Assembly (NCBI GenBank): GCA_964562445.1 | Contig: CAZLSZ010000003.1 | Coordinates: 693-64,692, forward strand | DNA from: an uncultured Gammaproteobacteria bacterium | GTDB lineage: Bacteria > Patescibacteriota > Microgenomatia > Levybacterales > UBA12049 | Reading direction: 5' to 3' | Length of the DNA stretch: 64,000 nt | Shown here: positions 17,770 to 58,287 of the stretch, piece by piece | Layout of the letters: each line of letters starts with the position of its first letter | Numbering within the stretch: the stretch's first letter is position 1 | Made by a program: the position numbers and the translations under genes | The notes under the pieces: generated by a model | What the model was told of the DNA's origin: nothing | What the model saw: only the letters and a program-made list of their open reading frames with translations | The model's database searches: none

Positions 17770-17822
17770 AGACAGTTGTTATTTTTATCATTGATTATGA
17801 AAAAATAACAATTGATAGAGTA

Positions 17823-33446: not shown

Positions 33447-33459
33447 ATATCTCCCCAGC

Positions 33460-33590
33460 GTCATTGCGATCCTGCAAAACAGGAGACCTGCCTGCCGGCA
33501 GGCAGGAGCAATCTCAAACAACATACAACAAAGAACAGAAAACAGTTATAAGTTTTTAGTTACTAGAGAGACCCCTGGCGCGAGGATGAC
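33460..33590. repeat. ~130-nt composite repeat element (reverse orientation relative to the 49068..49197 copy)
   Basis: Its reverse complement aligns along its length with 49068..49197, including a shared core TCTCTCTAGTAACTAAAAACTTATAACTGTTTTCTGTTC(A/T)TTGTTGTATGTT. Ends in GTCATTGCG / GGATGAC arms. Contains perfect inner palindromes CCTGCCTGCCGGCAGGCAGG and TCCTGTTTTGCAGGA. Confidence 0.7.
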
Positions 33591-33706
33591 ATACATCATG
33601 CATATGTATAAATCCCTCTCTTGACAACGTGTAGGCTTCATATAGTACTATAGATATGGTGATACTTTTCACAAAGAATTTCACATACATGAGGTAGGTG
33701 ATAGTC

Positions 33707-33866
33707 TATGAAGAAAACAAAAGTTGCTCCAAAAGCTGCCAAAACAAAATCCGTAAAAAGAGTTCGAAGGTCATCTTCGACACATGCAACAGAACATGAC
33801 TTTCTTATTATTCTCGGTGGAGGATTGGTAGTTTTGCTTCTTACTATTTTCCTTTTTATTCAATAG
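33707..33866 (+). CDS. Possible small membrane protein (52 aa) with a basic N-terminus and C-terminal TM helix
   Basis: ATG preceded by a GAGGTAGGTGATAG Shine-Dalgarno-like sequence. MKKTKVAPKAAKTKSVKRVRR...LIILGGGLVVLLLTIFLFIQ. Below the ORF-track size cut-off; weak. Confidence 0.2.
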
Positions 33867-35319
33867 GTAAAGCTTTCTGCATAAGTGAAATTTTATTCTG
33901 ATTTGCAGGATTTGCGATAAACTGTCTCAGAATTTTGTATATATCCAAATCGAAGTATACTTCATTATTTTTGTCGTTATTTATATTTCCTTCTTCATCT
34001 ACGACCACTTTTGCTTTGTAACACCAATTATCGATAATATAATATTCTTTCTTCCCACTCATCTCGGATTCTTGTATAGAGATCGGACCTTTATATGGCC
34101 ATGGTAATATTTTGAGTTCATTGACCGCGGTAATAAGCCGTATATTGTGTTGTATAGGTAGTTCTTTTGCGGTACACGCACCATTACACTTACCGAGTCT
34201 ATAAGCGAAACATGACGTGGATGTTTTTTCTAGGCCGAGCAGTTTCTCGCACAATGTATATTCTTTCGCGATAGCGGCAAGATATGCTTTTGCTTGTCTT
34301 TTTGATCTGAAAAAACCCAGAAAGTTGTCCAGTTTTTCCGGCTTAATGAGAGTAATGGGCTCCATATAGCATTCCAAGTATCCTTGTTTTGTCATTCGGC
34401 TTTTAAGAGCGATTAATTCATGCTTGATTCTTGAGCGTTTATTATATAATGGCAGCATTTCTTTAATTAACTTGGATTCGAGTAAGAGAGCTCCCAATTC
34501 ACCTGATGTCGTAACAGTTTCTATACTTTCTATTTGCTGGGCGATTCGCATTTCTGTAGGAGAAGAGAGGTCGGATGCGAAGTGACTGAGTACACGATTG
34601 CGTATATTGATACTTTTTCCTACATAGAGAGGGATACTATTTTTTTTCTGTTCGGATATGTTTTTCGGATCTTTTAGTCCTTTCGGTTCATTGCCATAAA
34701 AGATATAGACACCGGGTTTGTCGGGAAGTTTATCCAATTCCTGCATCGGCAGATTGACCGGCAAGGACGGTTTCTTTATCGTTTTGGCAAAGGCTTTTTC
34801 AAGTTGTTCGGGTGAATGCGATGCCAGTACATGTTTGTAAAAATGAAATAAGACCTGCGCATCATCAAAGGCTCTATGGCGGTTTGTACAGTCGATTCCG
34901 CAATGCTGTATAAGCGCGTCCAGATTGTGTCTAGGCCACTCCGGGTAGAGAAATCGGGATAATCGTACTGTACAAAAATGCCTGGCGTTATAGGTGAAAT
35001 TTTGTCTGATAAATTCACTTTTTATAAATCCGTAATCAAATCGGACATTGTGCGCCACAAAAGTGCAATCGTCAAGAATGGAGAGGATGTCATCTTTGAC
35101 ACTTCGAAAGGTGGGTGCATCTGCAAGCATATCTTCTGATATTCCTGTGATGCCGGTAATTTCTTTGGGGATATATGTTTGGGGATTGATGAGAGATTGA
35201 AAGGTATTTATCAGTTCGCCATTTTCTACCCGCAGGATGCCTATTTCGATAATTCTATCATGGGTTGATCGCATTCCTGTGGTTTCGATATCAACAAAAG
35301 CGAGCTTGGTAGGCAGCAT
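33856..35319 (-). CDS. DnaQ-like 3'-5' exonuclease fused to a GIY-YIG (UvrC N-terminal-like) nuclease domain (Cho-like excinuclease)
   Basis: FVDIETTGMRSTHDRIIEIG (Exo I), HNVRFDYGF (Exo II) and FDDAQV (Exo III), then GVYIFYG...LYVGKSINIRNRVLSHF (GIY-YIG). The alternative upstream start at 35421 would add 34 aa that are encoded by a REP-like unit (GTCATTGCG...). Confidence 0.7.
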   Translation of the reverse strand: MLPTKLAFVDIETTGMRSTHDRIIEIGILRVENGELINTFQSLINPQTYIPKEITGITGISEDMLADAPTFRSVKDDILSILDDCTFVAHNVRFDYGFIKSEFIRQNFTYNARHFCTVRLSRFLYPEWPRHNLDALIQHCGIDCTNRHRAFDDAQVLFHFYKHVLASHSPEQLEKAFAKTIKKPSLPVNLPMQELDKLPDKPGVYIFYGNEPKGLKDPKNISEQKKNSIPLYVGKSINIRNRVLSHFASDLSSPTEMRIAQQIESIETVTTSGELGALLLESKLIKEMLPLYNKRSRIKHELIALKSRMTKQGYLECYMEPITLIKPEKLDNFLGFFRSKRQAKAYLAAIAKEYTLCEKLLGLEKTSTSCFAYRLGKCNGACTAKELPIQHNIRLITAVNELKILPWPYKGPISIQESEMSGKKEYYIIDNWCYKAKVVVDEEGNINNDKNNEVYFDLDIYKILRQFIANPANQNKISLMQKALPIE

Positions 35320-35421
35320 AGTATCAGTTATTGTAGAATTGTTTGGAAAAAATTGCAAACTGAACCGTGCACCATGATTATCATTCTGATCCGTCAATTG
35401 GCGGACTCTTCGCAATGACAA

Positions 35422-36303
35422 TTAGCTAGTGAGGGCTTCCAGTTCTTCTTTTTCTTCGGGGATGTCACCATCCATAATCAGCGGAAGATTTTTCCAAGAT
35501 TTATTGATTCGATGATCGGTGAGTCTGTCTTGCGGGAAATTATATGTTTTAATTTTTTCTGACCTATCACCACGTCCCACCTGAGTTGATCTTAGAGAGG
35601 AAATTTCTTCCTGTTGCTTTGTCAGTTCAATCTCCCAGAGCTTTGCACGTAAAAGCTGCATAGCAATTTCTCTGTTCTGGAGCTGTGATCGTTCTACAGA
35701 AGTGGTTACAACCAGCCCGGAGGGTGTATGTTTCAAACGGACGGCAGTGGACACTTTATTGACATTTTGCCCGCCATGTCCGCCTGAACGGAACGCTTCA
35801 AATTCGATATCTTCCGGATTAATATGCAGATCGATATCATCAAGTTCAGGAAGGATGGAAACAGTCGCTGTCGATGTATGCACACGTCCCTTTTTTTCCG
35901 TCACCGGAATGCGTTGTACACGGTGTACACCTGCTTCATACTTATATGTCCCGAAAGCTCCATGTCCATTTATTTTGATGACATTTTCTTCAAGTTGTTC
36001 TACCTGAAACCCTTTTTTTTGCGCTGATCGAGTATACATCCGCATGAGCTCTTCTGCCCAGATTTTTGCTTCATCTCCGCCTGCCGCGCCGCTGAGTTCA
36101 AGAAGGATATTCCGATGATCATAACTTTCTTCCTGTTTAGCATTTGAGGTGTTTAGACTTTCCTGGATTGCTCTTTTTTGTTCCTCTAAAGAATCTATCT
36201 CCTGTTGTGCCAGTTCGGCCATAGAGGGATCTTCCAGGAGCGTTTTAGCTTCCTCAATTTGCTTTTCAAGTTCTTCTATTTGTGTGTAGCGATAGTCATT
36301 CAT
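35422..36303 (-). CDS. prfA: Peptide chain release factor 1, with a shortened N-terminal domain (293 aa)
   Basis: RIPVTEKKGRVHTS (PxT tripeptide anticodon motif of RF1, not the SPF of RF2) and SGGHGGQNVNK (GGQ). No frameshift site. The gene starts 36 nt downstream of rpmE, leaving no room for a longer N-terminus. Confidence 0.8.
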   Translation of the reverse strand: MNDYRYTQIEELEKQIEEAKTLLEDPSMAELAQQEIDSLEEQKRAIQESLNTSNAKQEESYDHRNILLELSGAAGGDEAKIWAEELMRMYTRSAQKKGFQVEQLEENVIKINGHGAFGTYKYEAGVHRVQRIPVTEKKGRVHTSTATVSILPELDDIDLHINPEDIEFEAFRSGGHGGQNVNKVSTAVRLKHTPSGLVVTTSVERSQLQNREIAMQLLRAKLWEIELTKQQEEISSLRSTQVGRGDRSEKIKTYNFPQDRLTDHRINKSWKNLPLIMDGDIPEEKEELEALTS

Positions 36304-36339
36304 AAGGTAATTATATGATGAAATGTGAATTGAGGGTAG

Positions 36340-36639
36340 CTATTTTAAGCCCATGAGCATTTCTCGGAGAGATTTGGGAGCATTTTCTTTTCGGCGTTTT
36401 TCTTCGATCTTGACGGAAACTTTCTGTTTGAAATCTGACGCTTTTTGCTGTTTTGTCTGGAATTTTTGGATTCTTGAAGCAGAGTCGACAAATCGTTGTT
36501 CACCGGTATAAAACGGATGACATTTGTGACACAATTCTACATGAATCGTTTCTTGTGTCGAACCGACGGTAAATTTGTTTCCGCAGACACAGACGACATT
36601 TGCTTTTTCAAAAAAATTCGGATGAATAGCTGATTTCAT
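36340..36639 (-). CDS. rpmE: 50S ribosomal protein L31 (zinc-binding type, with C-terminal basic extension)
   Basis: MKSAIHPNF...VVCVCGNKF...CHKCHPFYTG (CxxC...CxxC zinc ribbon). Confidence 0.85.
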   Translation of the reverse strand: MKSAIHPNFFEKANVVCVCGNKFTVGSTQETIHVELCHKCHPFYTGEQRFVDSASRIQKFQTKQQKASDFKQKVSVKIEEKRRKENAPKSLREMLMGLK

Positions 36640-36684
36640 TGATTTATTATACCGTAATTACCCATGAATGACAAGAGTCTGAGC

Positions 36685-37608
36685 TTACTTATGTTTTTCC
36701 TGTCGTGATTTGAGGTTGTTGCCGGGATGGAAATGCAGTTTCGCCTCCGCGATGATGATACCGGCAAAAACAAATAATGCCCCCAAAAGATAACTGACCG
36801 TTATTTGTTCGCCGAGAAGCGGAATCGCGATCAAGGCAGTGATAAATGGCTCAGTAAAAACAAATATACCGATTTCATTTGCCTTGATATATTTCACAGC
36901 GTAATTATAAAAGAAAAATCCCAACAATGATGAGAAGACTGCTCCGTATATGATCCCGATAATCCCTTTGGTATCGATGTGGAAATACGGTGTTGTCTGC
37001 ATCTCTACCAGATACAGCGGAAAAATCGCGAGGGTGCTGAAAAGGAACATCCAGAAGAGAAGGGTAGTAAGCGGATATTTGAGGTTATATTTTTTCAATA
37101 AAAGAGTATAGATCACAAATGTGATCACTCCCAGTACATGATACAGATTTCCTAGAATTGACTCGAATGAGCCGTGATCAACTAATGGCCGCAAGATTAT
37201 TATTAATACGCCGATAAAACTTATGAGAGTCCCTATAAGAACTTTCTTTTTTGGTTTTTCATGCAGAAAGAAGATTGCTCCAAAAATGAGAAAGAGTGGG
37301 GTGCTGGATGTAATAATAGGTACATTGATACTCGGAGCGAGTGACAAACCAAGGTAAAAAAATATAATATGTGCCGCGATGCCGACGAGTGCGAGTACTA
37401 GTATTTTAAATACGTCATCAAGGGCAATCCGTATCGATTTGATGACGATCGGAAAGAGGATGATTGTAGCGAAAAAGAAGCGGAAAAAAGCAAGAGCAAA
37501 TGGCGGCGCATCGCCGATTGACCATTTTAAGATAGGGGACGCTGCACTCCAGATGATTGTATTTAAGATAATAGCGATAAGCGCGAGTCTATACTTTGTG
37601 AATTTCAT
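36685..37608 (-). CDS. DMT-superfamily (EamA-like) transporter
   Basis: Ten TM helices and a duplicated EamA-domain architecture. Confidence 0.6.
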   Translation of the reverse strand: MKFTKYRLALIAIILNTIIWSAASPILKWSIGDAPPFALAFFRFFFATIILFPIVIKSIRIALDDVFKILVLALVGIAAHIIFFYLGLSLAPSINVPIITSSTPLFLIFGAIFFLHEKPKKKVLIGTLISFIGVLIIILRPLVDHGSFESILGNLYHVLGVITFVIYTLLLKKYNLKYPLTTLLFWMFLFSTLAIFPLYLVEMQTTPYFHIDTKGIIGIIYGAVFSSLLGFFFYNYAVKYIKANEIGIFVFTEPFITALIAIPLLGEQITVSYLLGALFVFAGIIIAEAKLHFHPGNNLKSRQEKHK

Positions 37609-37609
37609 A

Positions 37610-38536: not shown

Positions 38537-38551
38537 ACTGAGTGAGTTATT

Positions 38552-39772
38552 TTATGTTAGTTGTTTTATCACGTCTCTGAGTGATAGTTGCTGCTGCTCT
38601 CGTGTGCTCATGTTTTTAAGTAATACATGATTATTTTTTACCTCTTCAGGTCCCGCGATCAATACGTAGGGAATATGTTTCTGGTCAGCATATTTTAATT
38701 GTTTTTCTATTTTTGTGGCAGCATCGATCCATATATCAGTTCTGATCGATGCTGCACGGAGTGCTTTTGCAATCTCTATAGCATTCTCTGCATATTCCGG
38801 TGAAAAGATTGTGACGAGAACGGATGCAGTCGCGTTAAGGTGATCCGGAAAAAGATTATTTTCCGTCATTGCTTCGATGATCCTATCAAATCCGAAGGCA
38901 AATCCTACCGCCGGAATCGCTGTTTTGGTAAAAAGTCCGAGCAGGTTATCATATCTGCCGCCACCGCAGACAGAGCCTACAGGATACGCGGAAATTTCGA
39001 TTTCAAAAATAAGCCCTGTGTAGTAATCCAATCCTCTCGCGAGTGTCGGTTCAAATTGGATTGCTGATTCATTGATACCAAGAAGGACAGCCTGTTGAAT
39101 AATTTTCTGCAGTGATTCGGGCATGTGAGCATTTTTTATTTTCTCAAAGTCCTCCTGTGTATATCCTTTCTCTTTCAGTTCTTTCAGTACATTTTCTTCA
39201 CCGATTTTTTTGCGTTTGTCGATGATGATAATTGCCTCGATAGGCAGATCTCCGAAGATTTTTCTATCATTGATCAGAATTTTATAATCGTTAAAACCAA
39301 GTACCTCTACTGATTTTGCCACAACGGCGAGTATCTCGCTGTCTGCCATCCCTTCCTGCATGCCGACAATATCTGCATCACATTGGAGAAATTCCCTGTA
39401 GCGGCCTTTTTGGGGTTTATCCGCTCGCCAGACATTCTGTATCTGGTAGCGTTTGAAGGGGAGGGAAAGGGCATGATCATTGTTGTCAGTTTGGTTTTGG
39501 TATTGGGCAACGACTCTGGCGAGCGGGACTGTCTGATCATAGCGCATCGCGACGCGACGTTTACCGTTATCTTCAAAACGATACATGAGCTTTTCTCCTT
39601 CTTCTCCGTATTTCCCTGAAAGAATCTCTTCGTACTCCAGTGTCGGAGTTTCTAAGGGTTCAAATCCGAATGTTTCAAAAACAGTTTTTAGTTTGTTGAT
39701 GACGAATTGTCTTTTACGGGCTTCTGAAGGGAGAAAATCCCGAAATCCTTTAAGTGTTTGAGGCGTAATCAT
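38552..39772 (-). CDS. hisS: Histidine--tRNA ligase
   Basis: GFRDFLP N-terminal motif, class II aaRS motif 2 (FRYEDNGKRRVAMRYDQT-like region) and motif 3 (GGGRYDNL), C-terminal anticodon-binding domain. Confidence 0.9.
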   Translation of the reverse strand: MITPQTLKGFRDFLPSEARKRQFVINKLKTVFETFGFEPLETPTLEYEEILSGKYGEEGEKLMYRFEDNGKRRVAMRYDQTVPLARVVAQYQNQTDNNDHALSLPFKRYQIQNVWRADKPQKGRYREFLQCDADIVGMQEGMADSEILAVVAKSVEVLGFNDYKILINDRKIFGDLPIEAIIIIDKRKKIGEENVLKELKEKGYTQEDFEKIKNAHMPESLQKIIQQAVLLGINESAIQFEPTLARGLDYYTGLIFEIEISAYPVGSVCGGGRYDNLLGLFTKTAIPAVGFAFGFDRIIEAMTENNLFPDHLNATASVLVTIFSPEYAENAIEIAKALRAASIRTDIWIDAATKIEKQLKYADQKHIPYVLIAGPEEVKNNHVLLKNMSTREQQQLSLRDVIKQLT

Positions 39773-39789
39773 AGTCTAATTTTATCATA

Positions 39790-41675: not shown

Positions 41676-41684
41676 CCGGTGTTA

Positions 41685-42776: not shown

Positions 42777-42781
42777 GATTA

Positions 42782-43573: not shown

Positions 43574-43577
43574 GTTA

Positions 43578-44012: not shown

Positions 44013-44147
44013 GGGGCGGATTGCACAGTAATGATACGCCAAATGGTGCGTATTGTCAAGAAAAACGGAGTTCATTTGTGTAAGATTTTTAGTAAAAATT
44101 TTGTCACTACTTTGCAAAATAAGAGGGAAGTGGTATAGTAGGTAAAT

Positions 44148-44654: not shown

Positions 44655-44673
44655 ATAATAACGCAATGTAATA

Positions 44674-45999: not shown

Positions 46000-46002
46000 T
46001 CT

Positions 46003-46056
46003 GTCATTGCGAGGATCCTCGCAATGACATGCAGTGAGTAGCTCCGACAGTGGCAG
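46003..46056 (+). terminator. Putative intrinsic terminator after dnaB: the perfect palindrome GTCATTGCGAGGATCCTCGCAATGAC (a REP-family unit) followed by a T-run
   Basis: 26-nt perfect palindrome 4 nt after the dnaB stop. TTTTTTTG at about 46049..46056. Confidence 0.4.
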
Positions 46057-46082
46057 ATTTTTTTGTTTGCTATAATATAGCT

Positions 46083-47348: not shown

Positions 47349-48430
47349 AGAAAATAAAAATCGCAGTATTATTTGGTGGTCGATCTGCTGAGCATGAAGT
47401 CTCTTTGCAGTCCGCGAAAAGCGTGATAGACGCATTGGACAAAAAGAAATATGATGTCGTGCTTATCGGTATCACAAAAGAAGGAAAGTGGATTGTTAAT
47501 GATCGAAGTACATACCTCCTGCACTCGGAAAACCCGAAATTGATAAAGCTTAATAATTCCAATCGAAATATTGCTTTGCATCCAGGAAACACAGCACAGT
47601 TGGAAGAAACAGACAGTGCAAATAAAATCGGCCCTGTCGATGTCGTTTTTCCTGTCATGCACGGCACATATGGCGAAGATGGTGCAATACAAGGGCTTCT
47701 CAACATTATGGACGTCGCTTTTGTCGGTCCTGATATTCTCGGTTCCGCGGTGGGAATGGATAAAGATGTTATGAAACGACTTTTACGTGATGCAGGCATA
47801 CCGATAGGAAAGTTTCTTTCAGTAAAAAAGAATGAGAGAATCACTTTTGCTGAAGCAAAAAAACAAGTGGGTCTCCCTATGTTTATCAAACCTGCAAATC
47901 TGGGATCGTCAGTAGGCGTGAGTAAGGTCACGGATAGGGTAACATTCTCAAAGGCAGTAGAGGACGCTTTTCTGTATGATACAAAAATCATTATCGAAGA
48001 ATTTATCGACGGACGGGAGATAGAAGTTTCAGTTCTTGGAAATGATGATCCGATTGCGTCAGTTCCAGGTGAAATTATCCCGCGTCACGATTTCTATTCG
48101 TACGAATCAAAATATATTGACGCAGAAGGGGCAGGTTTGCAGATTCCTGCAAACCTGCCTATAAAAATACAGAAAGAAATACAAAAGAATGCTATTAAAA
48201 CATTTACGACGCTTTGTTGTCAGGGTATGGGGAGAGTAGATTGTTTTCTTACAAAGGATAATAACGTATATGTGAATGAAATTAACACAATTCCCGGATT
48301 TACAAAAATCAGTATGTATCCGAAATTATGGGAAGCGAGTGGCGTTTCGTACCCTGAATTATTGGACAAGTTGATCTCGTTGGCAATAGCGTACCATAAT
48401 ACAAAAAAGAAATTGAAAACTTCCGTATGA
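47345..48430 (+). CDS. ddl: D-alanine--D-alanine ligase
   Basis: KIAVLFGGRSAEHEVSLQSA, FPVMHGTYGEDG, ATP-grasp blocks (EEFIDGREIEVSVLGN, NEINTIPGF). Confidence 0.9.
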   Translation: MKKIKIAVLFGGRSAEHEVSLQSAKSVIDALDKKKYDVVLIGITKEGKWIVNDRSTYLLHSENPKLIKLNNSNRNIALHPGNTAQLEETDSANKIGPVDVVFPVMHGTYGEDGAIQGLLNIMDVAFVGPDILGSAVGMDKDVMKRLLRDAGIPIGKFLSVKKNERITFAEAKKQVGLPMFIKPANLGSSVGVSKVTDRVTFSKAVEDAFLYDTKIIIEEFIDGREIEVSVLGNDDPIASVPGEIIPRHDFYSYESKYIDAEGAGLQIPANLPIKIQKEIQKNAIKTFTTLCCQGMGRVDCFLTKDNNVYVNEINTIPGFTKISMYPKLWEASGVSYPELLDKLISLAIAYHNTKKKLKTSV

Positions 48431-49008: not shown

Positions 49009-49067
49009 CCTTGTCGTGTCATCCCCAGCTACCTCTGGGAATATCTTTGTCATACCCATCCAATCCC

Positions 49068-49197
49068 GTCATCCCCAGCTTGACTGGGGATCTCTCTAGT
49101 AACTAAAAACTTATAACTTATAACTGTTTTCTGTTCATTGTTGTATGTTTTACGTTATATGAGATTGCCACTCCGCCAGCTGGCGGATCGCAATAAC
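49068..49197. repeat. ~130-nt composite repeat element (forward copy): GTCATCC-hairpin, shared core, then GTTTTACGTTATATGAGATTGCCACTCC-GCCAGCTGGCGG-ATCGCAATAAC
   Basis: Aligns end-to-end with the reverse complement of 33460..33590. The 3' module matches 58183..58241, which has a different but still palindromic inner hairpin (TGCAGTGCAGG versus GCCAGCTGGCGG). An additional degenerate unit lies at 49018..49046. Confidence 0.7.
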
Positions 49198-49241
49198 ATT
49201 TTCAATTTGCATTCTTTGATACTTTTTGTTTAAATACAACC

Positions 49242-51038
49242 ATGAAAAAGATGAAAACTGCATGGGATTTAAGCCCCTTATTTAGCGGAGATGATGATCC
49301 TGCAATTTCGAAACAACGGGAAAGTATCGAGAAAGAAAATAAAAAATTTGTCAAAAAATGGTCCGCGAATGATTCATATCTCACTGATGCATCGGTACTC
49401 AAAAAAGCACTGGATGAGTATGAATTATTGATACGAAAATACGGCACTGACGGAAATGAAGGATATTATTTCTGGCTTCGCTCGCAGCAGGATCAGAATG
49501 ATCAACAGATAAAAGCAAAATTCGCTAAAGTGCTGGATTTCAGTAATAAACTGCGAAATGAGTTGCAATTTTTTGAACTTAAATTGGCAAAAATCTCCAA
49601 AGCAAAACAAAAAGAATTCTTGAAGGACAAAGCACTCAACTCATACAAACATTATCTGGAGAAAATATTCAGACAGGGAGAGTATGTCCTCAGTGATGAA
49701 GTCGAAAAAGTACTCAATCTCAAATGGGATGTCGCCCATGAAAAATGGGAGCAGATGCTTTCGGGTTTTATCTCCAAAGAAGAGCGCGAAATAGTAGGGG
49801 AGAGCGGCAAAAAAGAAAAGCTCACCTTTGAACAGCTGATCAGTCTGACGCAAAGTACCAAGAAAAAAGTCAGAGACGCAGCTGCAGGGGCAGTAAATGA
49901 TATTTTTGTGAAATTACTTGATGTAGCGGAAGCAGAAATCAATGCAATTCTCGCGAATAAGAAAATTGATGATGAGCTCCGCAAGATGCCTCGTCCTGAT
50001 TTTTCAAGGCACCTAGCGGATGATGTACAGAGTGATGTGGTGGATGCTCTCGTCAAAACAGTATCGGAAAGATATGATATTTCGAAAAAATATTATCAGC
50101 TCAAGGCGAAGATACTCGGTGTAAAACAACTCAAGTATCATGAGCGGAATGTTTCATTGGGGACAAAAGAGACAGTTTTTTCTTTTGATGATGGGGCGAA
50201 ATTGGTGCACAAAGTATTTCATGAGCTGGATCCGTATTTCGCGCAAACACTTGATAGATTTTTGGAAAACGGACAGATTGATGTCTATCCCCAAAAAGGG
50301 AAGCGAGGAGGAGCGTTTTGCGTCTATTGGCAGGTAGAAAAGCCGACATTTGTGATGCTCAACTATACCGATAAACTCAGAGATGTGGAGACACTTGCCC
50401 ATGAAATGGGACACGCGATCAATGATGAATTGATGAAGAAACAAAATGCGCTTAATTTCGGTACACCGACCTCAACTGCAGAAGTCGCAAGTACATTTAT
50501 GGAGGATTTTGTTTTGCAGGAAATTCTCAAGTCAGCTGATGAGGAAACACGATTCAGCCTGATGATGTCCAAACTCGATACGGAAATTGCGACGATTTTC
50601 AGACAGATCGCGTGTTATCAGTTTGAGTGGGATTTGCATGCAGCTTTTCGTGAGAAAGGATATCTATCAGCAAAAGAAATCGGCGCAATTTTTCAAAAAA
50701 ATATGAGCGCGTATATGGGACCGGGTGTTGAACAATCAAAAGGTTCTGAGAATTGGTGGCTTTACTGGTCACACATCCGTACATTTTTTTATGTGTATTC
50801 TTACGCGAGCGGACTGCTTATTTCAAAATCGATGCAAAATGGGGTTAAACAAAATCCCGAATTTATCGAGAAAGTAAAAGAGTTCTTATCATCAGGCTTG
50901 TCAGCATCACCCAAAGACATTTTTATGAAAATGGATATCGATATCACTGATACTGCTTTTTGGAATAAAGGGCTGAATGAAGTCGAAAATCTCCTTAAAG
51001 AATCCACAAAATTAGCTAAAAAATTGGGTAAGATTTAA
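49242..51038 (+). CDS. pepF: Oligoendopeptidase F (M3B family)
   Basis: HEMGHA zinc-binding motif (HExxH) with downstream Glu. Length about 600 aa is typical of PepF. Confidence 0.85.
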   Translation: MKKMKTAWDLSPLFSGDDDPAISKQRESIEKENKKFVKKWSANDSYLTDASVLKKALDEYELLIRKYGTDGNEGYYFWLRSQQDQNDQQIKAKFAKVLDFSNKLRNELQFFELKLAKISKAKQKEFLKDKALNSYKHYLEKIFRQGEYVLSDEVEKVLNLKWDVAHEKWEQMLSGFISKEEREIVGESGKKEKLTFEQLISLTQSTKKKVRDAAAGAVNDIFVKLLDVAEAEINAILANKKIDDELRKMPRPDFSRHLADDVQSDVVDALVKTVSERYDISKKYYQLKAKILGVKQLKYHERNVSLGTKETVFSFDDGAKLVHKVFHELDPYFAQTLDRFLENGQIDVYPQKGKRGGAFCVYWQVEKPTFVMLNYTDKLRDVETLAHEMGHAINDELMKKQNALNFGTPTSTAEVASTFMEDFVLQEILKSADEETRFSLMMSKLDTEIATIFRQIACYQFEWDLHAAFREKGYLSAKEIGAIFQKNMSAYMGPGVEQSKGSENWWLYWSHIRTFFYVYSYASGLLISKSMQNGVKQNPEFIEKVKEFLSSGLSASPKDIFMKMDIDITDTAFWNKGLNEVENLLKESTKLAKKLGKI

Positions 51039-51481
51039 CGTTTCGCCTTAATTATCATTAGAAACTCTTTCACGGTAATAATTTGTAATTTTTCAAGTTT
51101 TGGATGTTTATCGAGAATGAGTAAATCCTCATCACCTGTAATAATATAATCAGCTTTACCACTTAACGCAGTGGTTATTATCATTTCATCCTTTATATCA
51201 CGAACTTTTATAGGTAATGCTTCCGTTATTTTAATGAATTCAGCTTGTTTGATAAGCAATGTCTGCATGACGGGGAAGAAAGTATCTTTTTTGAGATATT
51301 TTTGTATCTTTTTTCTTTGTAGAACATCGTTTATTTCTAATAACAAAAGATTACTTAAAAGAAGTGTGTAGGAGTCTCTCCTCCATAGTTCAATAATTTG
51401 GTATGGTTTGCTTGTAGGAAAGAGGAGGCCGCTGATAATGACGTTAGTGTCAACGACGACTCGAAGCTTTTGTCTTTTCAT
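51035..51481 (-). CDS. vapC: PIN-domain toxin (VapC-like)
   Basis: VVVDTNVIISG (first acidic residue in DTNV) and ITGDEDLL. 148 aa. Confidence 0.65.
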   Translation of the reverse strand: MKRQKLRVVVDTNVIISGLLFPTSKPYQIIELWRRDSYTLLLSNLLLLEINDVLQRKKIQKYLKKDTFFPVMQTLLIKQAEFIKITEALPIKVRDIKDEMIITTALSGKADYIITGDEDLLILDKHPKLEKLQIITVKEFLMIIKAKR

Positions 51482-51767
51482 AATTTTTTTGTCTGACTAT
51501 CGCTACCTCTTTAGTAATTTCATTATAGGCAGTATCTGTATCAATATCCGCATTTTGAGCGCGCATCTCATCAATTATGGCCCAGAGCTGTCCATTGTTT
51601 TGTAACTGCTCATATCGTTCAAGAAGTTCTAGACTGACAATTGCTACCTCAGGTTCATTTTTGCTGATAACAATAACTGGTTGATTTGTTTTTTTTACTT
51701 TTTTGACAATAGATTTATAATTTCGTTGGACTTCACGTGCAGAAGTTGTATTTATAGATAATAACAT
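51450..51767 (-). CDS. Phd/YefM-like antitoxin (putative partner of the PIN toxin)
   Basis: SAREVQRNYKSIVKKVKKTNQPVIVISKNEPEVAIVSLELLERYEQ resembles the Phd/YefM N-terminus. Lies upstream of the PIN gene with a 32-nt overlap. Confidence 0.45.
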   Translation of the reverse strand: MLLSINTTSAREVQRNYKSIVKKVKKTNQPVIVISKNEPEVAIVSLELLERYEQLQNNGQLWAIIDEMRAQNADIDTDTAYNEITKEVAIVRQKNYEKTKASSRR

Positions 51768-51829
51768 AGGTATATTATATCACTTTGTCGTAGTTTTGTC
51801 AATCAAATGTTGACGATTTTACGCTAAAT

Positions 51830-52177
51830 TCAGTGATCAAAGTCGCCGTTTTTGCGTCTATCATCAATTTCTTTAAGCACTTCGGGATATTCTTTATCTA
51901 AATCAATATTATAATGATCGGCGATAAGGAGGAGTTCAAATAATATATCACATACGGAATTAGTGATATCTGATTTTTTCCTTTTTATGGATTTATATCC
52001 TTCTTCTGTTTGTATCGCGTTTGCGAGTTCACCGACTTCTTCTACAAGTTCCACGAAACGATTGTGCGCGCTCCATTCTTTTTTATTACGCATTTTTGCG
52101 GCAATTTCTGCAGTTTGTTTGGTATATGTATTCAGATTCTTTGCTTTCATAGTGCAGGTAGAGTATATCAGTTCCAC
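51830..52177 (-). CDS. MazG-like nucleotide pyrophosphohydrolase (all-alpha NTP-PPase)
   Basis: LVEEVGELANAI and the EExxD-type motif (LDKEYPEVLKEID). 115 aa. Confidence 0.55.
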   Translation of the reverse strand: MELIYSTCTMKAKNLNTYTKQTAEIAAKMRNKKEWSAHNRFVELVEEVGELANAIQTEEGYKSIKRKKSDITNSVCDILFELLLIADHYNIDLDKEYPEVLKEIDDRRKNGDFDH

Positions 52178-52273
52178 AGGATATGTGAAATAACACCCGG
52201 TGTTGGTTATAATGCAGAGTAAAATATTATAGGTTATTGAATAGTTTGATAGTAAGTGATATAGTCACCACTT

Positions 52274-53362: not shown

Positions 53363-53419
53363 TTTGATATCCAGTTAGAGATTGCTTCACCCCTTTCCGC
53401 TCGTAATGACAATCTTATA

Positions 53420-55963
53420 TTATTTTGTTTCAGCTTTTAATTTGTGACCCTTTCCAAAGAATTTTCTCCCTATAAGTTTATGAAACTCTACGGCAAGAAC
53501 AGGCGTCACAAATCCTACTACTGTCGTCCAGAGGATGTCGTGGAGTGAAATCGGGTGAAGATTAAGTAACTTTGTAAATACACCCATCATCGCGGCAATC
53601 TGCATACTTACAGCGATAGTTAGCCCGAAATAAAATGCTGGACTAAATCTACGAATGCGTTTGAAAAGAGATTCATAATCACTACGGTAATTAAACGCGC
53701 TCGCCCATTGCATCACGACGAGCGCGTGAAATGCCATTGTACGTGCATAGTCGACTCCATGTATTTTGATAGATGTGGTATAAAGCCACATGGTCAGTAC
53801 AGCCATAGTAATTGATACAAGTAAAATACGTGAGATCATAAAATGGCTGAAGAGGGGAGCATCCGGAGCTTGTAGGGGCTTGTTCATATTGCGTTTTTCG
53901 CCCGGTTCCAGACCGAGCGGGATAACCATGCAGGTATCTGTCGCGAGATTTACCCACAAAATTTGTACCGGTGCAAGAGGGACAGGGATACCAGCGATCA
54001 GAGAGGACAATGCGACAAATACTTCTCCCGTATTTGTGGAGATGAGATACGCTACCATGCGTTTGATATTGGCATAAATAGTCCGTCCCTCATGGATTGC
54101 ATTGACTATCGAACGGAAATTATTATCCAAAAGAATGATGTCGCCCGCATCTTTGGCAATACTTGCACCGCTTCCCATAGCGACTCCTACATGCGCTCCA
54201 GCGAGCGCTGGTACATCATTGACCCCGTCACCTGTCATGGCGGTAATATTATGCTTTTTGAGAATAATGAGTATACGATGTTTGTGCTCAGGGATAACTC
54301 GAGCAAAAACGCGTATATTTTCTATCATTTTTTCCAATTCTTCGTCATTCATCTCATGCATTTTTCGGCTGTCAAAGACTTGATTCCGATTCTCGATCAT
54401 ACCGAGTTGTTTGCCTATGTGGTATGCTGTTTCGAAATGATCACCGGTAATCATTCGTACTGTTATCCCGGCATTTGCTGCGATTTTGATCGCCTGTTTC
54501 GCTTCAGCGCGGAGAACGTCTGCTACTCCGACAAATCCATCAAAGGCGAATTTTGCAGACTTCGGAAGTTCTTCAAATGTATCGATAGTTTCATAATTAT
54601 CCAAATGCGCAATTGCGATGACACGATAGCCTTGACTGGCAAGTTCCTGCATTTTTTTCTCTGCTTCAATTTTTTCATCATGATTCAGTTTTGATTTATC
54701 GATAATCCTTTCCGGAGCACCTTTTACCCAAAGAGTTTGCCTTCCACCTTCTTCGATGACATTCCCGCTCATGGCGGATTCAAGAGAGAAGGGGAACTGC
54801 TGGATAATTTTTATTTTATGCGCGTTTTTCTTTTTTGAAGAAACATATTGCATGAGTGCAGTATCGAGCGGATCATGCACTTTGGTTTCAGAGTGATTGA
54901 CAGCCCGCTCAAGGGCGGAAAGTATGTGGTTGGGGCGATGGGGAAGGTGCCATGTTTGTTGTACTGTCAGTCTGTTCTCCGTAAGAGTACCTGTTTTATC
55001 CGTCGCGATTGTGGTGATTGTGCCGACTGTTTCTATAGCGCGCATGGCCCGCACAAGAGCTTTTTTTGCGGCCATGCGCCGCATTCCCAATACCAATACT
55101 ACTGTAATGGCTACGGCAAGGCTTTCAGGGACAGCACTCACTGATAAAGCGAGAACATAACGTATACTATCTGCTACATCTACACCTCTATAAACTGAAA
55201 GACAAAACGCGATAAGCGCAATAGCGGCGATAACTCGTATAATTTGGTTTATTAATTTATCGATTTTAATTTGTACAGGGCTATGTTCGGGTGTAGCGAC
55301 ACTCAGTGCAGCCAGACGCCCAAATTCAGTATCATTTCCTGTTGCTACCACGACTGCTTCGGCATGTCCGCCCACCACGAAGGAACCTTGAAAAACCATA
55401 TTTGATTGTTCATAAATTTCCTTGCCTTCCGAGAGAGGATCTATTTGTTTTTGGATAGGAAGTGATTCTCCCGTAAGTTGCGATTCATCAACCCTTAGGG
55501 AGTTTACCAATGTCAGTCTAGCATCCGCCGGTATTTTTTCACCCTCATCAATTATGATAATGTCTCCTGGCACGAGGTCTTCTGCATTAACTCTTATTAT
55601 TTCTTTGTCTCGCATCACATCTACGAGGAATTTGTCCCTTTTTTGGAGAGAGCGGAGAATGCGTTCCGTAGAAAAACGTTGGATATAATAAATCAGAGAA
55701 TTTATTCCCATGATAGCACCAATTATCCACGCATCTACATACGCGTCATGCATGATACTAATGATAACTGCGACAAAGAGAACACCCATAAATATGTTAC
55801 GGAAAGGTTCTATGATTTTTTGCCACAATGGTTCGCCTTTTATATTAATGATGTTTTTGCCGTATTGCGCGAGACGTTCTGCATAGACTGTTTTGGATAA
55901 TCCTTCGGAAGTGGAGTCAAGTTCTTTCAGTGTTTGGTCTATTGTCTTGCTGTAAAAACTCAT
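53420..55963 (-). CDS. Cation-transporting P-type ATPase (type II, Ca2+/PMCA-SERCA-like)
   Basis: DKTGTLT, TGES (LTGES), and GDGVNDVPALAGAHVGVAMG. 847 aa with 10 TM helices. Confidence 0.8.
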   Translation of the reverse strand: MSFYSKTIDQTLKELDSTSEGLSKTVYAERLAQYGKNIINIKGEPLWQKIIEPFRNIFMGVLFVAVIISIMHDAYVDAWIIGAIMGINSLIYYIQRFSTERILRSLQKRDKFLVDVMRDKEIIRVNAEDLVPGDIIIIDEGEKIPADARLTLVNSLRVDESQLTGESLPIQKQIDPLSEGKEIYEQSNMVFQGSFVVGGHAEAVVVATGNDTEFGRLAALSVATPEHSPVQIKIDKLINQIIRVIAAIALIAFCLSVYRGVDVADSIRYVLALSVSAVPESLAVAITVVLVLGMRRMAAKKALVRAMRAIETVGTITTIATDKTGTLTENRLTVQQTWHLPHRPNHILSALERAVNHSETKVHDPLDTALMQYVSSKKKNAHKIKIIQQFPFSLESAMSGNVIEEGGRQTLWVKGAPERIIDKSKLNHDEKIEAEKKMQELASQGYRVIAIAHLDNYETIDTFEELPKSAKFAFDGFVGVADVLRAEAKQAIKIAANAGITVRMITGDHFETAYHIGKQLGMIENRNQVFDSRKMHEMNDEELEKMIENIRVFARVIPEHKHRILIILKKHNITAMTGDGVNDVPALAGAHVGVAMGSGASIAKDAGDIILLDNNFRSIVNAIHEGRTIYANIKRMVAYLISTNTGEVFVALSSLIAGIPVPLAPVQILWVNLATDTCMVIPLGLEPGEKRNMNKPLQAPDAPLFSHFMISRILLVSITMAVLTMWLYTTSIKIHGVDYARTMAFHALVVMQWASAFNYRSDYESLFKRIRRFSPAFYFGLTIAVSMQIAAMMGVFTKLLNLHPISLHDILWTTVVGFVTPVLAVEFHKLIGRKFFGKGHKLKAETK

Positions 55964-56133
55964 GGGTTATTTTATTGTAGCAAAGAAAGATAGGAGGGGG
56001 AAGAAAAGCTTACCATTCTGCACGAGCGTCGCTCGGGTTTATGCTGTATCAGATTTTGGACAGAGCCAGAATGACAGATTAGTTCTTATGTGTTAGTTAT
56101 TAGTTTTCAGTTCTCAATTCTACTTTTTATATT

Positions 56134-56162
56134 GAGAGATTCCCAGTCAAGCTGGGAATGAC
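56134..56162. repeat. REP-like unit GAGAGATTCCCAGTCAAGCTGGGAATGAC
   Basis: Same outer arms as 58133..58161 (GAGAGATTCCCGATCAGGTCGGGAATGAC) but with a different self-complementary inner stem. Confidence 0.7.
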
Positions 56163-56196
56163 GATATTGTTTTTAGTTCACAGTTCCAAGTTATTG

Positions 56197-56284
56197 TGGT
56201 GCCGGGAGGGGGAGTCGAACCCCCACGGGGTGTAATCCCCAAAGGTTTTTGAGACCTTCGTGTCTGCCATTCCACCACCCCGGC
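56197..56284 (-). tRNA. tRNA-Leu (anticodon CAA) with long variable arm and encoded CCA
   Basis: Reverse complement GCCGGGGTGGTGGAATGGCAGACACGAAGGTCTCAAAAACCTTTGGGGATTACACCCCGTGGGGGTTCGACTCCCCCTCCCGGCACCA. Shows a 7-bp acceptor stem, D-arm, anticodon loop CUCAAAA, 16-nt variable arm, GTTCGACT T-loop and CCA. Confidence 0.85.
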
Positions 56285-56331
56285 ATATTAACTGAAAACT
56301 AAGAACTGTGAACTTAGATATAACATTTAAT

Positions 56332-56440
56332 GTCATTCCGGACTTGATCCGGAATCTCCAAGGAAAAGATTCTGAAACAAGTTCAGGATGACAGATTTAT
56401 TTGCGATTGCTTCGCCGAGCTGAGCTCGGCTCGCAATGAC
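56332..56440. repeat. Cluster of REP-like units downstream of the tRNA (GTCATTCCGGACTTGATCCGGAATC; CAGGATGACAGATT; GATTGCTTCGCCGAGCTGAGCTCGGCTCGCAATGAC)
   Basis: Units at 56332..56356 and 56405..56440. The CAGRATGACAGATT motif also occurs at 56076..56090. Confidence 0.65.
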
Positions 56441-56500
56441 AAGTCTATTGTACCATATTTGGGGTTTATTTTTATGTAATTCACTGCTACAATTAGGTCG

Positions 56501-58024
56501 ATGAAATTTGAATTAACCGATAAAGAAATACTCTCCCTTTCCTCAGATGCTGCCATTTTCTTCGCTTTTTCAGAAAAAAAAGGTAAGAAAACACGATACG
56601 AGCTCTGTGGCGAATCGGCAATAACTGATAAAAAGATAGTTGATGTCATTAAAAATGCCTGCGCTATGGAAAATTTTACCGGAAAACCAAGAGAGCAGAT
56701 GGTTATCCTGCAAGGTGAGGAGAGTTTATATTCACGAATTGTTGTGCTTGGTTTGGGAGAAAAAGAAGAATTTACGGTAAATGAACTTCGAAACGCGGGA
56801 GGGATTTTTTCCAAAAAGTATAAAAATAAAATAAATTCAGCATCTGTCTTTTTCCCTGAAGAAGTAATAAAACTGGGAGGATTGGATGTGCTGACGCAGG
56901 CATTTACTGAAGGGTTGTTATTGGGAGCGTATACATTTAATAAATACAAAAAGCAGGAGGAGCAGGAAAAGGTACTGGAAATTGTAATCGTCCATTATAA
57001 CGATAAAAAGGAAAAAGATATTTTGTATCAAAGTATAAAAAAGGCCGAATTATACGCGAAAGGGACAATGTTAGCCAGAGATTTGGTAAATGAGCCGGCA
57101 TATTTCGCAAATCCTGCATATTTAGCGGAATTGGCAAAAGATATCTCCAAGAAAAATCCCAAAACGCTTTCCTGCAAAGTATTTGATAAAACACAATGTG
57201 AGAAGATGGGGATGCAAGCATTTCTTTCTATTGCCCGCGCTGCAGGAGATGCTGTCTCGCCCAAGTTTATCGTCCTTGAGTATAATCCCGGAAAAACGTC
57301 CAAGAAAAAAGTCGCGTTGGTAGGGAAGGGGATAACTTTTGATAGTGGTGGCATCAATGTCAAACCTGATCCGCATATGACGGATATGAAATGTGATATG
57401 GCAGGTGCGGCAGCAGTACTCGGCGTTTTTTCCGTTATTTCCGAGCTCAAACCGGACTTTCCGGTCATGGGTATTATCGCCGCGACACCAAATCTCATTT
57501 CCGCAACATCCGCGGTCCCCGGGGATGTCGTAAAGGCGATGAATGGGAAGACAATTGAAATACTCAATACCGACGCTGAAGGCAGAGTGACACTCGCGGA
57601 TAGTTTGTCTTATGCCGTCAAGCATGGAGCGACGGAAATTATTGATCTCGCGACATTAACAGGCGCATGTATGGTCGCTTTGGGTGATGAAGTATCGGGA
57701 CTTTTTGTGAATAATCAGGATCTCGGACGGAAGATAAAAAGTGCTGCATATGATGCGGGGGAGAGAGTATGGGAAATGCCGCTTGAAAAAGGATATAAGA
57801 AGCTCAACAAAAGTGATGTGGCAGATATCGCCAACCTTTCCAGTAAACGATATGGTGGAGCAATTACCGCGGCGCTTTTTTTGGAAGCATTTGTGGATAA
57901 TCTTCCATGGGCGCATCTTGATATCGCAGGTCCGGCGTTTCTTTCTTCGCCAAGTGATGTTTCTCTCAAAGGAGGAACGGGGTTTGGGGTACGGACACTC
58001 CTCAATATGCTGCAGGAAAAGTAG
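56501..58024 (+). CDS. pepA: Leucyl aminopeptidase (M17 family)
   Basis: NTDAEGRVTLADSL signature and VGKGITFDSGG. Confidence 0.85.
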   Translation: MKFELTDKEILSLSSDAAIFFAFSEKKGKKTRYELCGESAITDKKIVDVIKNACAMENFTGKPREQMVILQGEESLYSRIVVLGLGEKEEFTVNELRNAGGIFSKKYKNKINSASVFFPEEVIKLGGLDVLTQAFTEGLLLGAYTFNKYKKQEEQEKVLEIVIVHYNDKKEKDILYQSIKKAELYAKGTMLARDLVNEPAYFANPAYLAELAKDISKKNPKTLSCKVFDKTQCEKMGMQAFLSIARAAGDAVSPKFIVLEYNPGKTSKKKVALVGKGITFDSGGINVKPDPHMTDMKCDMAGAAAVLGVFSVISELKPDFPVMGIIAATPNLISATSAVPGDVVKAMNGKTIEILNTDAEGRVTLADSLSYAVKHGATEIIDLATLTGACMVALGDEVSGLFVNNQDLGRKIKSAAYDAGERVWEMPLEKGYKKLNKSDVADIANLSSKRYGGAITAALFLEAFVDNLPWAHLDIAGPAFLSSPSDVSLKGGTGFGVRTLLNMLQEK

Positions 58025-58066
58025 TTGTCACCCCTGATCCTGCTTTGCCTGAGATGGATATCCCAC

Positions 58067-58241
58067 GTCATTCTGGCTTGTCCAGAATCTGATCCTGGAG
58101 TCCTCGTTCTACTCGTCCCCAGAATGACAAAAGAGAGATTCCCGATCAGGTCGGGAATGACATTTGTTATATCAGTCTTTAGTGTTATGTTTTGCGTTAT
58201 ATGAGATTGCCACTCCTGCAGTGCAGGAGCCTTGCAATGAC
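58067..58241. repeat. Cluster of REP-like units between pepA and efp, including a copy of the GTTTTGCGTTATATGAGATTGCCACTCC-hairpin-CTTGCAATGAC module
   Basis: Units at 58067..58093 (GTCATTCTGGCTTGTCCAGAATC), 58133..58161 and 58183..58241. The last unit aligns with 49141..49197. Confidence 0.7.
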
Positions 58242-58287
58242 ATTGGTTATTATTTTCGTGACAAGGGTGCCTCATGTATGCTAAAAT

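Follow-up and report, generated by a model that had tools for sequence, protein, structure and literature searches.

CGTC/TGTC-tagged hairpin repeats in a Levybacteria-like genome and their probable relation to Ssn-type single-strand nucleases

Repeat units of the window

The DNA examined here (the window) is a 64,000-nucleotide stretch of contig CAZLSZ010000003.1 (GenBank assembly GCA_964562445.1, positions 693 to 64,692) from an uncultured, Levybacteria-like member of the Candidate Phyla Radiation (CPR). About 20 small hairpin units were counted in these 64 kb. Most of the intergenic copies are located a few to 80 nt past the stop codons of malQ-like, SurA-like, RF1, dnaB, maf, and pepA genes; others cluster around tRNA-Leu(CAA), and two lie in frame within ychF. 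The units belong to the bacteria-wide superfamily of CGTC/TGTC-tagged repetitive extragenic palindromes (REPs), together with dRS3/NTS of Neisseria, the Rickettsia palindromic elements (RPEs) RPE-4 and RPE-6, and the motifs related to Ssn, a small GIY-YIG nuclease. The original prediction, made from the letters of the sequence, had described a family of the REP/RPE type in which the outer arms are conserved and the interiors vary but stay self-complementary. That reading is borne out, and the family is the published one of CGTC-tagged REPs.

Read head-first, the general plan of a unit is a [C/T]GTC tag, a stem starting with AT, a variable self-complementary top, the returning stem ending in AT, and a C (usually CTC). 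The head tag is CGTC in 5 and TGTC in 14 units, that is, in 19 of the 20; the remaining one is mutated to TGTT. All well-preserved oriented units read GTC-AT...AT-C. The tail is CTC in nearly all oriented units, while CCA tails occur in high-GC relatives. Three classes can be told apart. Class A units are about 27 nt long and follow the pattern GTC-AT(T/C)CCnnn-CTTGA-nnnGG(A/G)AT-CTC, with stems of 7–8 bp starting with AT and loops of 4–6 nt (mostly CTTGA, also GAAA, CTTGT, CCTGA, and one of 6 nt). In class B (36–56 nt), the hairpin TCCnnn-loop-nnnGGA is enclosed by an outer stem of 5 bp, ATTGC/GCAAT. Class C units, such as the copy at 53376, are rich in purines. Two units, 3570 and 46001, are double-headed full palindromes followed by G on either strand. 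The apex variant TCCTGC...GCAGGA is common to four units of the host genome, which suggests fairly recent copying.

Enrichment was assessed with a tag-pair scan for 5' G(TC/AG)AT and 3' AT(GA/CT)C spaced 20–74 nt apart, with at most one mismatch over the next four paired bases. The window gave 15 matches, about 10–11 of them family members; in 200 first-order Markov sequences the mean was 1.04, and no sequence gave more than 5. Within the window, the motif is more frequent than expected by chance. A covariance model made from four units, with which the window was searched without filters, found the remaining members except 33459–33517, 35380–35421, and 56403–56442; these were recognised by eye from the sequence. 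The Rfam scan of the window reported tRNA only and no match to the units. The non-coding share of the window is 7.2% (the set of open reading frames, ORFs, makes up 92.8%) and holds 17 of the 20 units; two are within ychF, and one overlaps a doubtful TTG start beside a stop codon. The density is about 0.3 units per kb, 85–90% of the units are intergenic, and their orientation relative to transcription is mixed. Exact look-up of window proteins against public assemblies gave no record of YchF or EF-P in the form in which their ORFs were called, and L31 was identical only on a 1.1-kb contig.

All twelve sites listed in the original prediction carry the architecture given there, and the inner stems cited for paired changes (CCCAGTCAAGCTGGG versus CCCGATCAGGTCGGG; GCCAGCTGGCGG versus TGCAGTGCAGG) are present. 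The list was incomplete, however, since five units had been missed (25617–25656, 26151–26190, 35380–35421, 56364–56394, and the decayed copy 56048–56077). The copy at 53379–53410 (TGTCATTACGAGCGGAAAGGGGTGAAGCAATCTC) is not degenerate, as had been stated, but belongs as an ordinary member to a purine-rich sub-class common elsewhere. The string GTCATTGC at 21719, in a histidine-kinase gene, was not counted as a unit because it encodes a conserved VIADRERIGQVLTNL box.

Among the single units, the copy at 3570–3599 is a double-headed class A palindrome, TCGTC-ATTCCCGC-GAAA-GCGGGAAT-GACGA, which up to its tail equals the canonical CGTC-1/NTS core CGTCATTCCCGCGAAAGCGGGAAT; its core also flanks ssn-like genes in L258 (L numbers denote the loci fetched for comparison). 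Unit 35380–35421 (minus strand), of class B with partly decayed arms, starts 2 nt past the stop codon of RF1 and extends over the doubtful TTG start assigned to the following ORF. Another copy located 2 nt past a stop codon, that of dnaB, is 46001–46030, a double-headed perfect 28-nt palindrome with class B arms (TGTCATTGCGAGGA-TCCTCGCAATGACA). The class A unit 49016–49047 (plus), 8 nt past the maf stop, has one stem mismatch and a 6-nt loop. The class C unit at 53376–53412 (minus) lies between two convergent genes; class C units also flank ssn in L244 and L278.

The remaining single copies are all on the minus strand. A decayed class A copy, 56048–56077, is kin to the unit at 58065. It is followed by a class A unit just downstream of tRNA-Leu(CAA) at 56134–56164 (TCGTC-ATTCCCAG-CTTGA-CTGGGAAT-CTCTC), a class B unit at 56403–56442 (TGTCATTGCGA[GCCGAGCTcaGCTCGGC]GAAGCAATC), a class A unit at 58133–58163 (ATGTC-ATTCCCGA-CCTGA-TCGGGAAT-CTCTC), and a class B unit at 58201–58243 (TGTCATTGCAAGG[CTCCTGCactGCAGGAG]TGGCAATCTC) preceded by a piece of spacer shared with the dimer at 49066–49199. 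The tRNA-Leu(CAA) gene itself (56197–56284, minus strand) has four family units around it, one downstream and three upstream.

In-frame units in ychF

The YchF protein encoded in the window has 384 aa; most of its closest homologues have 367 aa, with a range of up to 414 aa. Those with organism names mostly bear the label of Levybacteria or other Patescibacteria; three, including the closest match, are labelled as other phyla or classes. The alignment revealed two insertion hot-spots, and at the DNA level the inserts are units of the family. In the window, both are filled with class B units on the minus strand: 25617–25656 at hot-spot 1, which encodes 12 residues and reads head-first TGTCATTGCGA[TCCTGCaaaGCAGGA]GTGGCAATCTC, and 26151–26190 at hot-spot 2, which encodes 11 residues, has a decayed tail arm and shares its apex with the hot-spot 1 copy.

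The same two sites differ among relatives. L001 also has class B units at both. In L247, hot-spot 1 holds a class A unit (GAGATCCTGAATCAAGTTCAGGATGAC) and hot-spot 2 is empty, while in L246 hot-spot 1 is empty and hot-spot 2 holds a unit of class B or C in the opposite orientation (CCGTCATTGCGAACGAAGTGAAACAATCTC). Both sites are empty in L004. The presence of empty and filled sites in relatives, with units in both orientations, is evidence of mobility and turnover. The two ychF copies of one genome are more alike than either is to orthologous copies. At hot-spot 1, the window and L247 have the filled-site flanks A-x-[unit]-K-S-x-W-P-P in common, but the contents differ: a 36-nt class B unit in the window versus a 27-nt class A unit in L247. 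Shared flanks around different interiors are most simply read as replacement of the interior at a fixed site.

The ychF allele whose insert is largest (414 aa) is that of L248. Directly upstream of it, at 1434–2105, lies a 223-aa Y1_Tnp gene of the type of REP-associated tyrosine transposases (RAYTs), which has tandem and inverted repeats of its own (CCACCTT[A/C]GATTTGGAAT) on its flanks and not CGTC units. In L247, a large serine recombinase gene (8443–10053) overlaps the ychF start and follows a block with a SIR2_2-domain gene; this block resembles an inserted island.

Inverted dimers

Four pairs of units form inverted dimers in which the tails face each other and the heads point outward. 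Dimer 1 (33459–33592) consists of a class B unit whose interior holds two hairpins, TCCTGCaaaaCAGGA and CCTGCCTGCCGGCAGGCAGG (33459–33517, plus), an AT-rich spacer (33518–33565), and a decayed class A unit (33566–33592, minus). In dimer 2 (49066–49199), a class A unit, CCGTC-ATCCCCAG-CTTGA-CTGGGGAT-CTCTC (49066–49096, plus), and a class B unit with its head mutated to TGTTAT and the apex TCCGCCAGCTGGCGGA (49159–49199, minus) enclose the spacer at 49097–49158. This apex also occurs in Mucilaginibacter (L046, L096) and in L244. The AT-rich spacers of the two dimers, about 60 nt long, are almost identical, while both flanking hairpins differ. Direct target-site duplications were found neither at 33459/33592 nor at 49066/49199; the ends are inverted.

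The third dimer is a tight one. Its left half, 56330–56360 (plus), is the class A unit ATGTC-ATTCCGGA-CTTGA-TCCGGAAT-CTCCA, and its right half, 56364–56394 (minus), the class A unit CTGTC-ATCCTGAA-CTTGT-TTCAGAAT-CTTTT, near-identical to units of a Treponema genome (L018). The fourth is a remnant: a class A unit with a 7-bp stem, ACGTC-ATTCTGG-CTTGT-CCAGAAT-CTGAT, located 41 nt past the pepA stop (58065–58093, plus), is paired with the lone head arm TGTCATTCTGGGG (58104–58130, minus).

Distribution and covariation

The family extends far beyond the window. A species-level scan (one genome per species) for GTCATTGCGA-N(4–34)-TCGCAATGAC found at least 120 loci, while chance matches were roughly estimated at about 17 for the whole collection. 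The matches listed come from Alpha-, Beta-, and Gammaproteobacteria, Cyanobacteria, Chloroflexi, Bacteroidota, Clostridia, Spirochaetes, Fibrobacter, Planctomycetes, Omnitrophota, and Rickettsiaceae. Some interiors found elsewhere are exactly equal to those of the window; one of them, CCGCCAGCTGGCGG, occurs in Mucilaginibacter. Treponema, Fibrobacter, Bradyrhizobium, and Tisiphia have class A-like units with CTTGA or CTTGT loops. Many genomes (e.g., L057, L085, L111, and L116) have palindromes which run 9–12 nt past the GTCAT...ATGAC arms; in these, the conserved motif forms a middle layer between variable outer and variable inner stems.

A metagenome scan for GAGATTGCCACTCC-N(6–20)-GCAATGAC also revealed at least 120 loci, from unrelated organisms; among the matches listed, protein identity to the window was at most 44%. 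The scan demanded no pairing in the gap, and the interiors can therefore be used as an unbiased sample for covariation. Among the matches listed, a perfect stem of at least 5 bp was present in 58 of 75 distinct interiors versus about 5 of 75 after shuffling. In addition, 20 class A units from several phyla were placed in a model-based alignment, which leans towards structure by construction: 99.3% of its cells are paired, and both-sided changes occur at 7 of the 8 stem pairs. None of 500 shuffles matched the observed percentage of pairing, double-sided changes or covariation score, and slid controls collapsed. The compensatory variation claimed in the original prediction thus holds well beyond the window. 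G-U pairs make up 1 of 152 cells in this alignment, and their near-absence speaks for a constraint at the level of DNA and not of RNA.

Relation to known repeat systems

The closest described family is that of the CGTC-tagged REPs, CGTC-1 to CGTC-4 (Di Nocera, De Gregorio, Rocco, 2013, BMC Genomics 14:522; PMC3733652). These have a CGTC tag (often TGTC or CCTC), an 8–9-bp stem whose first pairs are A-T and T-A, a 4–5-nt loop, and three unpaired tail nucleotides with the consensus CCA. Most follow ORFs at a short distance, many are paired into inverted dimers separated by spacers, in which the head-to-head arrangement is commonest, and some lie in frame within genes. No dedicated transposase was known, no RAYT was flanked by CGTC units in that survey, and extinction of the enzyme was raised as one option. 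The superfamily takes in Neisseria dRS3, RPE-4 (= CGTC-4), and RPE-6 (= CGTC-1) of Rickettsia (PMC3733652). The units of the window share the unpaired CGTC/TGTC tag, the stem starting with AT, the 8-bp stems and 4–5-nt loops of class A, and a 3-nt tail, which reads CTC and not CCA. They are likewise dispersed near the 3' ends of ORFs, single or as inverted dimers with spacers, have in-frame copies, and lack an attached transposase. In contrast to the published repeats, class B has a 5-bp outer stem plus an inner hairpin and, with 36–56 nt, is beyond the published stem and loop range. The CPR host belongs to a group outside the 2013 survey.

A second close system is that of SsnA, a 94-aa single-domain GIY-YIG nuclease which binds and cuts the 28-nt NTS (CGTCATTCCCGCGMAVGCGGGAATCYRG) only as single-stranded DNA and on one strand only (Nat Commun 2025, 16:2388; PMC11893778). 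Cutting is governed by the three bases before the palindrome (GTC), binding by the C that follows it. The gene ssnA is typically bracketed by repeats, and the pair of ssnA and repeat lowers transformation by repeat-carrying DNA (PMC11893778). Like NTS, the unit at 3570 has the core CGTCATTCCCGCG.A.GCGGGAAT. Judged from their sequence, the well-preserved oriented window units keep the two features critical for SsnA, a GTC in front of the palindrome and a C immediately behind it, and the repeat-ssn-repeat layout occurs in CPR relatives. The window differs in its lack of an ssn gene, and its units miss the published degenerate motif by one position. This pattern, the SRM pattern, is tuned to CCCGCG-type stems and is blind to pairing. 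With one substitution allowed it gave 5 matches in the window, 4 of them true units, versus 2.5 expected; the four best window units are each one position off.

Three further systems show partial likeness. As in the RPEs of Rickettsia (Ogata et al., 2000, 2002), palindromic repeats occur in frame in unrelated housekeeping genes as well as between genes, and the in-frame palindromic inserts of YchF, with empty orthologous sites, represent this RPE-type trait in the window. However, classical elements of the RPE-1 type measure 100–150 bp and are known from Rickettsia only, whereas the in-gene copies of the window are 36-nt single units in an unrelated host. The units of Tisiphia (Rickettsiaceae, L007) are near-identical to window units. 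The dRS3 and intergenic mosaic elements of Neisseria have the core ATTCCC-N8-GGGAAT of the 3570 unit and the same order of repeat, spacer, and inverted repeat, but dRS3 also serves as the integration site for a filamentous prophage recombinase, and none of that kind was seen in the window. The GTAG REPs and REPINs resemble our units as small hairpins with an unpaired tag, which form inverted doublets, have occasional in-frame copies and bracket an enzyme gene with its own repeats. Their tag, however, is GT[AG]G, their enzyme is an HUH Y1 transposase rather than a GIY-YIG nuclease, and none of the Y1 genes examined adjoins units of the window type. We found no literature on palindromic elements specific to CPR bacteria, and string searches with the unit sequences returned primers only.

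Ssn-like genes beside the units

Literature and scans indicate that the partner enzyme of these repeats is a small GIY-YIG single-strand nuclease (Ssn), an option absent from the original prediction. In the fetched loci, genes for GIY-YIG proteins of about 96 aa are located 5–100 nt from family units. Ssn-like genes bracketed by units were found in Bradyrhizobium and a Nostocales genome, and the adjacency of ssn and units was seen in seven metagenome loci, the type of L178 and L221 being closest to Flavobacteriaceae proteins. Among viral contigs, 8 of 25 have an ssn-like gene with units on both sides. Tagged units within 150 nt on both sides accompany 6 of 8 ssn-like ORFs versus 29 of 3657 other ORFs.

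Homologues also occur in the CPR, labelled as candidate division WWE3 (L274–L277) and as Patescibacteria group (metagenome-assembled genome, L278). Their ssn-like genes have units of classes B and C, or dimers, on either side, and the TCCGCC...GGCGGA tops of these cassette units match the window unit at 49159. In the WWE3 loci L274–L277 (about 5800–6500 in L274), a tail-to-tail dimer of about 115 nt with TCCGCC...GGCGGA tops is present in direct copies on each side of the ssn-like gene. The cassette lies between HtrA/NUDIX and RF1-L31-HisRS and is roughly syntenic with window dimer 33459–33592. The gene-less dimers of the window have the layout of the repeat-ssn-repeat cassette minus the gene, and may have originated from such a cassette. 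Recombination between the two direct dimer copies of the WWE3 cassette would leave a lone dimer.

One ORF of the window, 33856–35421 (minus), is not an Ssn: it encodes a DEDD exonuclease (RNase_T domain) with a weak GIY-YIG match, and relatives of this protein also have UvrC-like domains. The ORF adjoins dimer 1, and a family unit overlaps its nominal start. The unit-bearing intergenic regions of the window contain no ssn remnants.

Proposed mechanism and alternative explanations

We regard it as probable that the units, as members of the CGTC/TGTC-tagged REP superfamily, are selfish DNA hairpins of the Ssn type. Each unit would form a DNA hairpin with a conserved foot ([C/T]GTC, the AT start of the stem, and the C after the stem) and a top free to vary. 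In the single-stranded state, a single-domain GIY-YIG Ssn of about 96 aa would bind the hairpin and the 3' C and cut beside GTC. Recognition by foot and pairing, and not by the sequence of the top, would result in conserved arms with covarying interiors. The units would behave as selfish DNA, singly or as spacer-bearing tail-to-tail dimers, with copies surviving where harm is small: just past stop codons and in frame in two YchF loops. Interiors would be rewritten in place, copied from other units or from the opposite arm, and such copying from a template would make both arms change together. Binding and cutting of single-stranded DNA and restriction of transformation would apply to the window units by analogy with the published system. 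We infer that the host genome encodes an Ssn, that this enzyme drives the spread or rewriting of the units, and that the host may benefit.

Several observations weigh against this explanation. No GIY-YIG/Ssn gene was found in the 64-kb window or in about 95 kb of Levybacteria-like contigs. The ssn-like proteins are candidate members of cd10448, with Pfam PF01541 and a weak UPF0213 structure match as the only assignments obtained; no NCBIfam family reached its cut-off. The SRM pattern, HGTCWYN(0-2)YYVSBRHN(0-5)WNVSBRGN(0-2)RNCYNB, has 0 exact matches in the window (0.12 expected from shuffles). The tail of the window units is CTC and not the consensus CCA, and their dimers have heads outward, whereas head-to-head is commonest for CGTC repeats. 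Finally, what has been shown for Ssn is the binding and cutting of repeats rather than their movement or copying.

More tentatively, we suggest that the interiors are actively rewritten in place by a copy-from-template process in this CPR lineage, that is, strand-switching or short-patch conversion from an Ssn-type nick, which would swap tops between units and create palindromes in essential genes. This possibility, which we hold to be doubtful as a whole, is based on the shared flanks and different units of hot-spot 1, the dimers with conserved spacers and different hairpins, and the likeness of ychF copies within a genome. Template copying would account for the joint change of both arms, the missing G-U intermediates, and interiors which change while flanks and spacers are kept. 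Perfect inverted repeats outside the family (arms of 11 nt or more, loops no longer than 40 nt) number 14 in the window versus 0.7 in shuffles; examples are 2930–2988, 12247–12300, 38718–38755, 48130–48159, and 60344–60370. Eight of the 14 are inside ORFs, including the malQ-like gene, DHODH, hisS, and ddl. The palindrome of the malQ-like gene (2930–2988) comprises 57 nt with 18-nt arms; it was rejected as an in-gene insertion because the MalQ-like protein aligns there gap-free with the L246 orthologue.

Rather unlikely, although the strongest of the alternatives, is a relic state of the units. They would once have been spread by a mobilising enzyme, of the Ssn type or another, which was later lost from a reduced genome; the hairpins would now drift, with pairing kept by template-switching of replication in imperfect palindromes. 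The lack of an ssn gene in the window and the sampled Levybacteria-like contigs fits this explanation, as do the decayed copies at 33566, 49016, 56048, 58104, and 26151 and the possibility of enzyme extinction considered by Di Nocera et al. (PMC3733652). The excess of perfect palindromes outside the family would agree with general template-switching. On the other hand, many copies have perfect stems, and the TCCTGC...GCAGGA apex shared by four units suggests fairly recent copying. Also, among the genomes in which such motifs number more than 200, 81% have an Ssn gene (PMC11893778), and the density of about 0.3 per kb is to be seen beside this figure.

The units could also be RNA elements, either mRNA-stabilising 3' hairpins or transcription terminators, with stems maintained by selection on RNA folding. 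The original prediction had taken the location of several units just after stop codons as consistent with terminator roles. This location is indeed frequent: most units follow stop codons between co-directional or convergent genes, as do CGTC REPs elsewhere (PMC3733652). However, most units have no T-tract, only 2–3 pass a loose terminator scan, and terminator-like sites at 44–59 kb (17 versus 11.5 ± 3.3 in shuffles) are not enriched. Orientation is mixed, G-U pairs are nearly absent, and Rfam gave no match. Units are also present in the divergent promoter region 56330–56442 and inside ychF. An RNA or terminator role is possible as a side effect, is not supported as the cause, and we consider this explanation improbable.

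REPs or REPINs moved by a RAYT (a Y1 HUH transposase) encoded elsewhere in the genome, another proposal of the original prediction, are very unlikely. Y1_Tnp genes do occur in the related CPR contigs L248 (next to ychF) and L275, as well as in three contigs carrying class B units. The window, however, contains no Y1_Tnp gene, and its units carry CGTC/TGTC tags and lack GT[AG]G. The repeats that flank the Y1_Tnp genes of L248, L191, L208, and L227 are of other kinds, each gene having its own, with the nearest CGTC unit at least 775 nt away, and no RAYT flanked by CGTC units appeared in the published survey (PMC3733652).

The composites of about 130 nt (dimers 1 and 2), which had been likened to a mobile unit of the MITE type (miniature inverted-repeat transposable element), are real and have a conserved spacer. 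Two copies and one partial copy with inverted ends would suit classical MITEs moved by a DDE transposase with target-site duplications. The comparison nevertheless fails at the absence of direct duplications at either copy. The ends are ordinary family units also found alone, their interiors differ while the spacer is conserved, and no transposase was present among the window ORFs read or scanned (part of the ORF set). We find a MITE origin scarcely credible. CPR bacteria are thought to depend on DNA uptake, a point in favour of the suggestion that the units are uptake sequences read by the competence machinery.

This suggestion, which the original prediction had linked to a TfoX-like gene, has practically no weight: uptake sequences are short, exact, dense, and common in genes, but the units are variable, sparse (about 0.3 per kb), and mostly intergenic (2 of 20 in a gene), and no TfoX domain was detected in the 20 window ORFs scanned. 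The related NTS affects transformation in Neisseria, but it is distinct from the DNA uptake sequence (DUS) and reduces integration of incoming DNA (PMC11893778). By analogy, Ssn biology would touch transformation as restriction of incoming DNA and not as an uptake signal.

Other features of the window

A two-gene module is duplicated at 16873–18782 and 23479–25343, 6.6 kb apart and with 73–78% DNA identity; its genes encode a metallophosphoesterase-like protein (read from the translation) and a protein that weakly matches a nucleotidyltransferase. A Fic/Doc toxin gene and its small neighbour are flanked by two perfect, AT-rich palindromes, one of 40 nt (18916–18955) and one of 30 nt (19836–19865), which may be operator sites. 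A toxin-antitoxin-like pair at 51035–51767, consisting of a PIN-like toxin and a small antitoxin-like gene, was recognised by eye from translations; it is followed by a MazG-like gene (51830–52177).

Implications

The main value of this analysis is correct filing: the repeat, a mystery when seen as bare letters, is to be placed among the CGTC-tagged REPs or Ssn-type motifs. The repeat family was already described. New are its CPR (Levybacteria-like) host, the series of YchF hot-spots, the evidence for in-place rewriting, and the excess of perfect palindromes in genes. At the YchF hot-spots, empty sites and sites filled with units of class A or class B, in both orientations, make up a natural series which can be used to study the entry and change of such units within an essential gene. 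The changing interiors, together with the excess of perfect palindromes in genes, hint at templated rewriting. Both the repeats and repeat-bracketed ssn-like genes occur in CPR bacteria, whose genomes measure about 1 Mb and which are believed to rely on the uptake of DNA. In such organisms, a pair of a hairpin and a nuclease that cuts incoming single strands would bear directly on the handling of foreign DNA.

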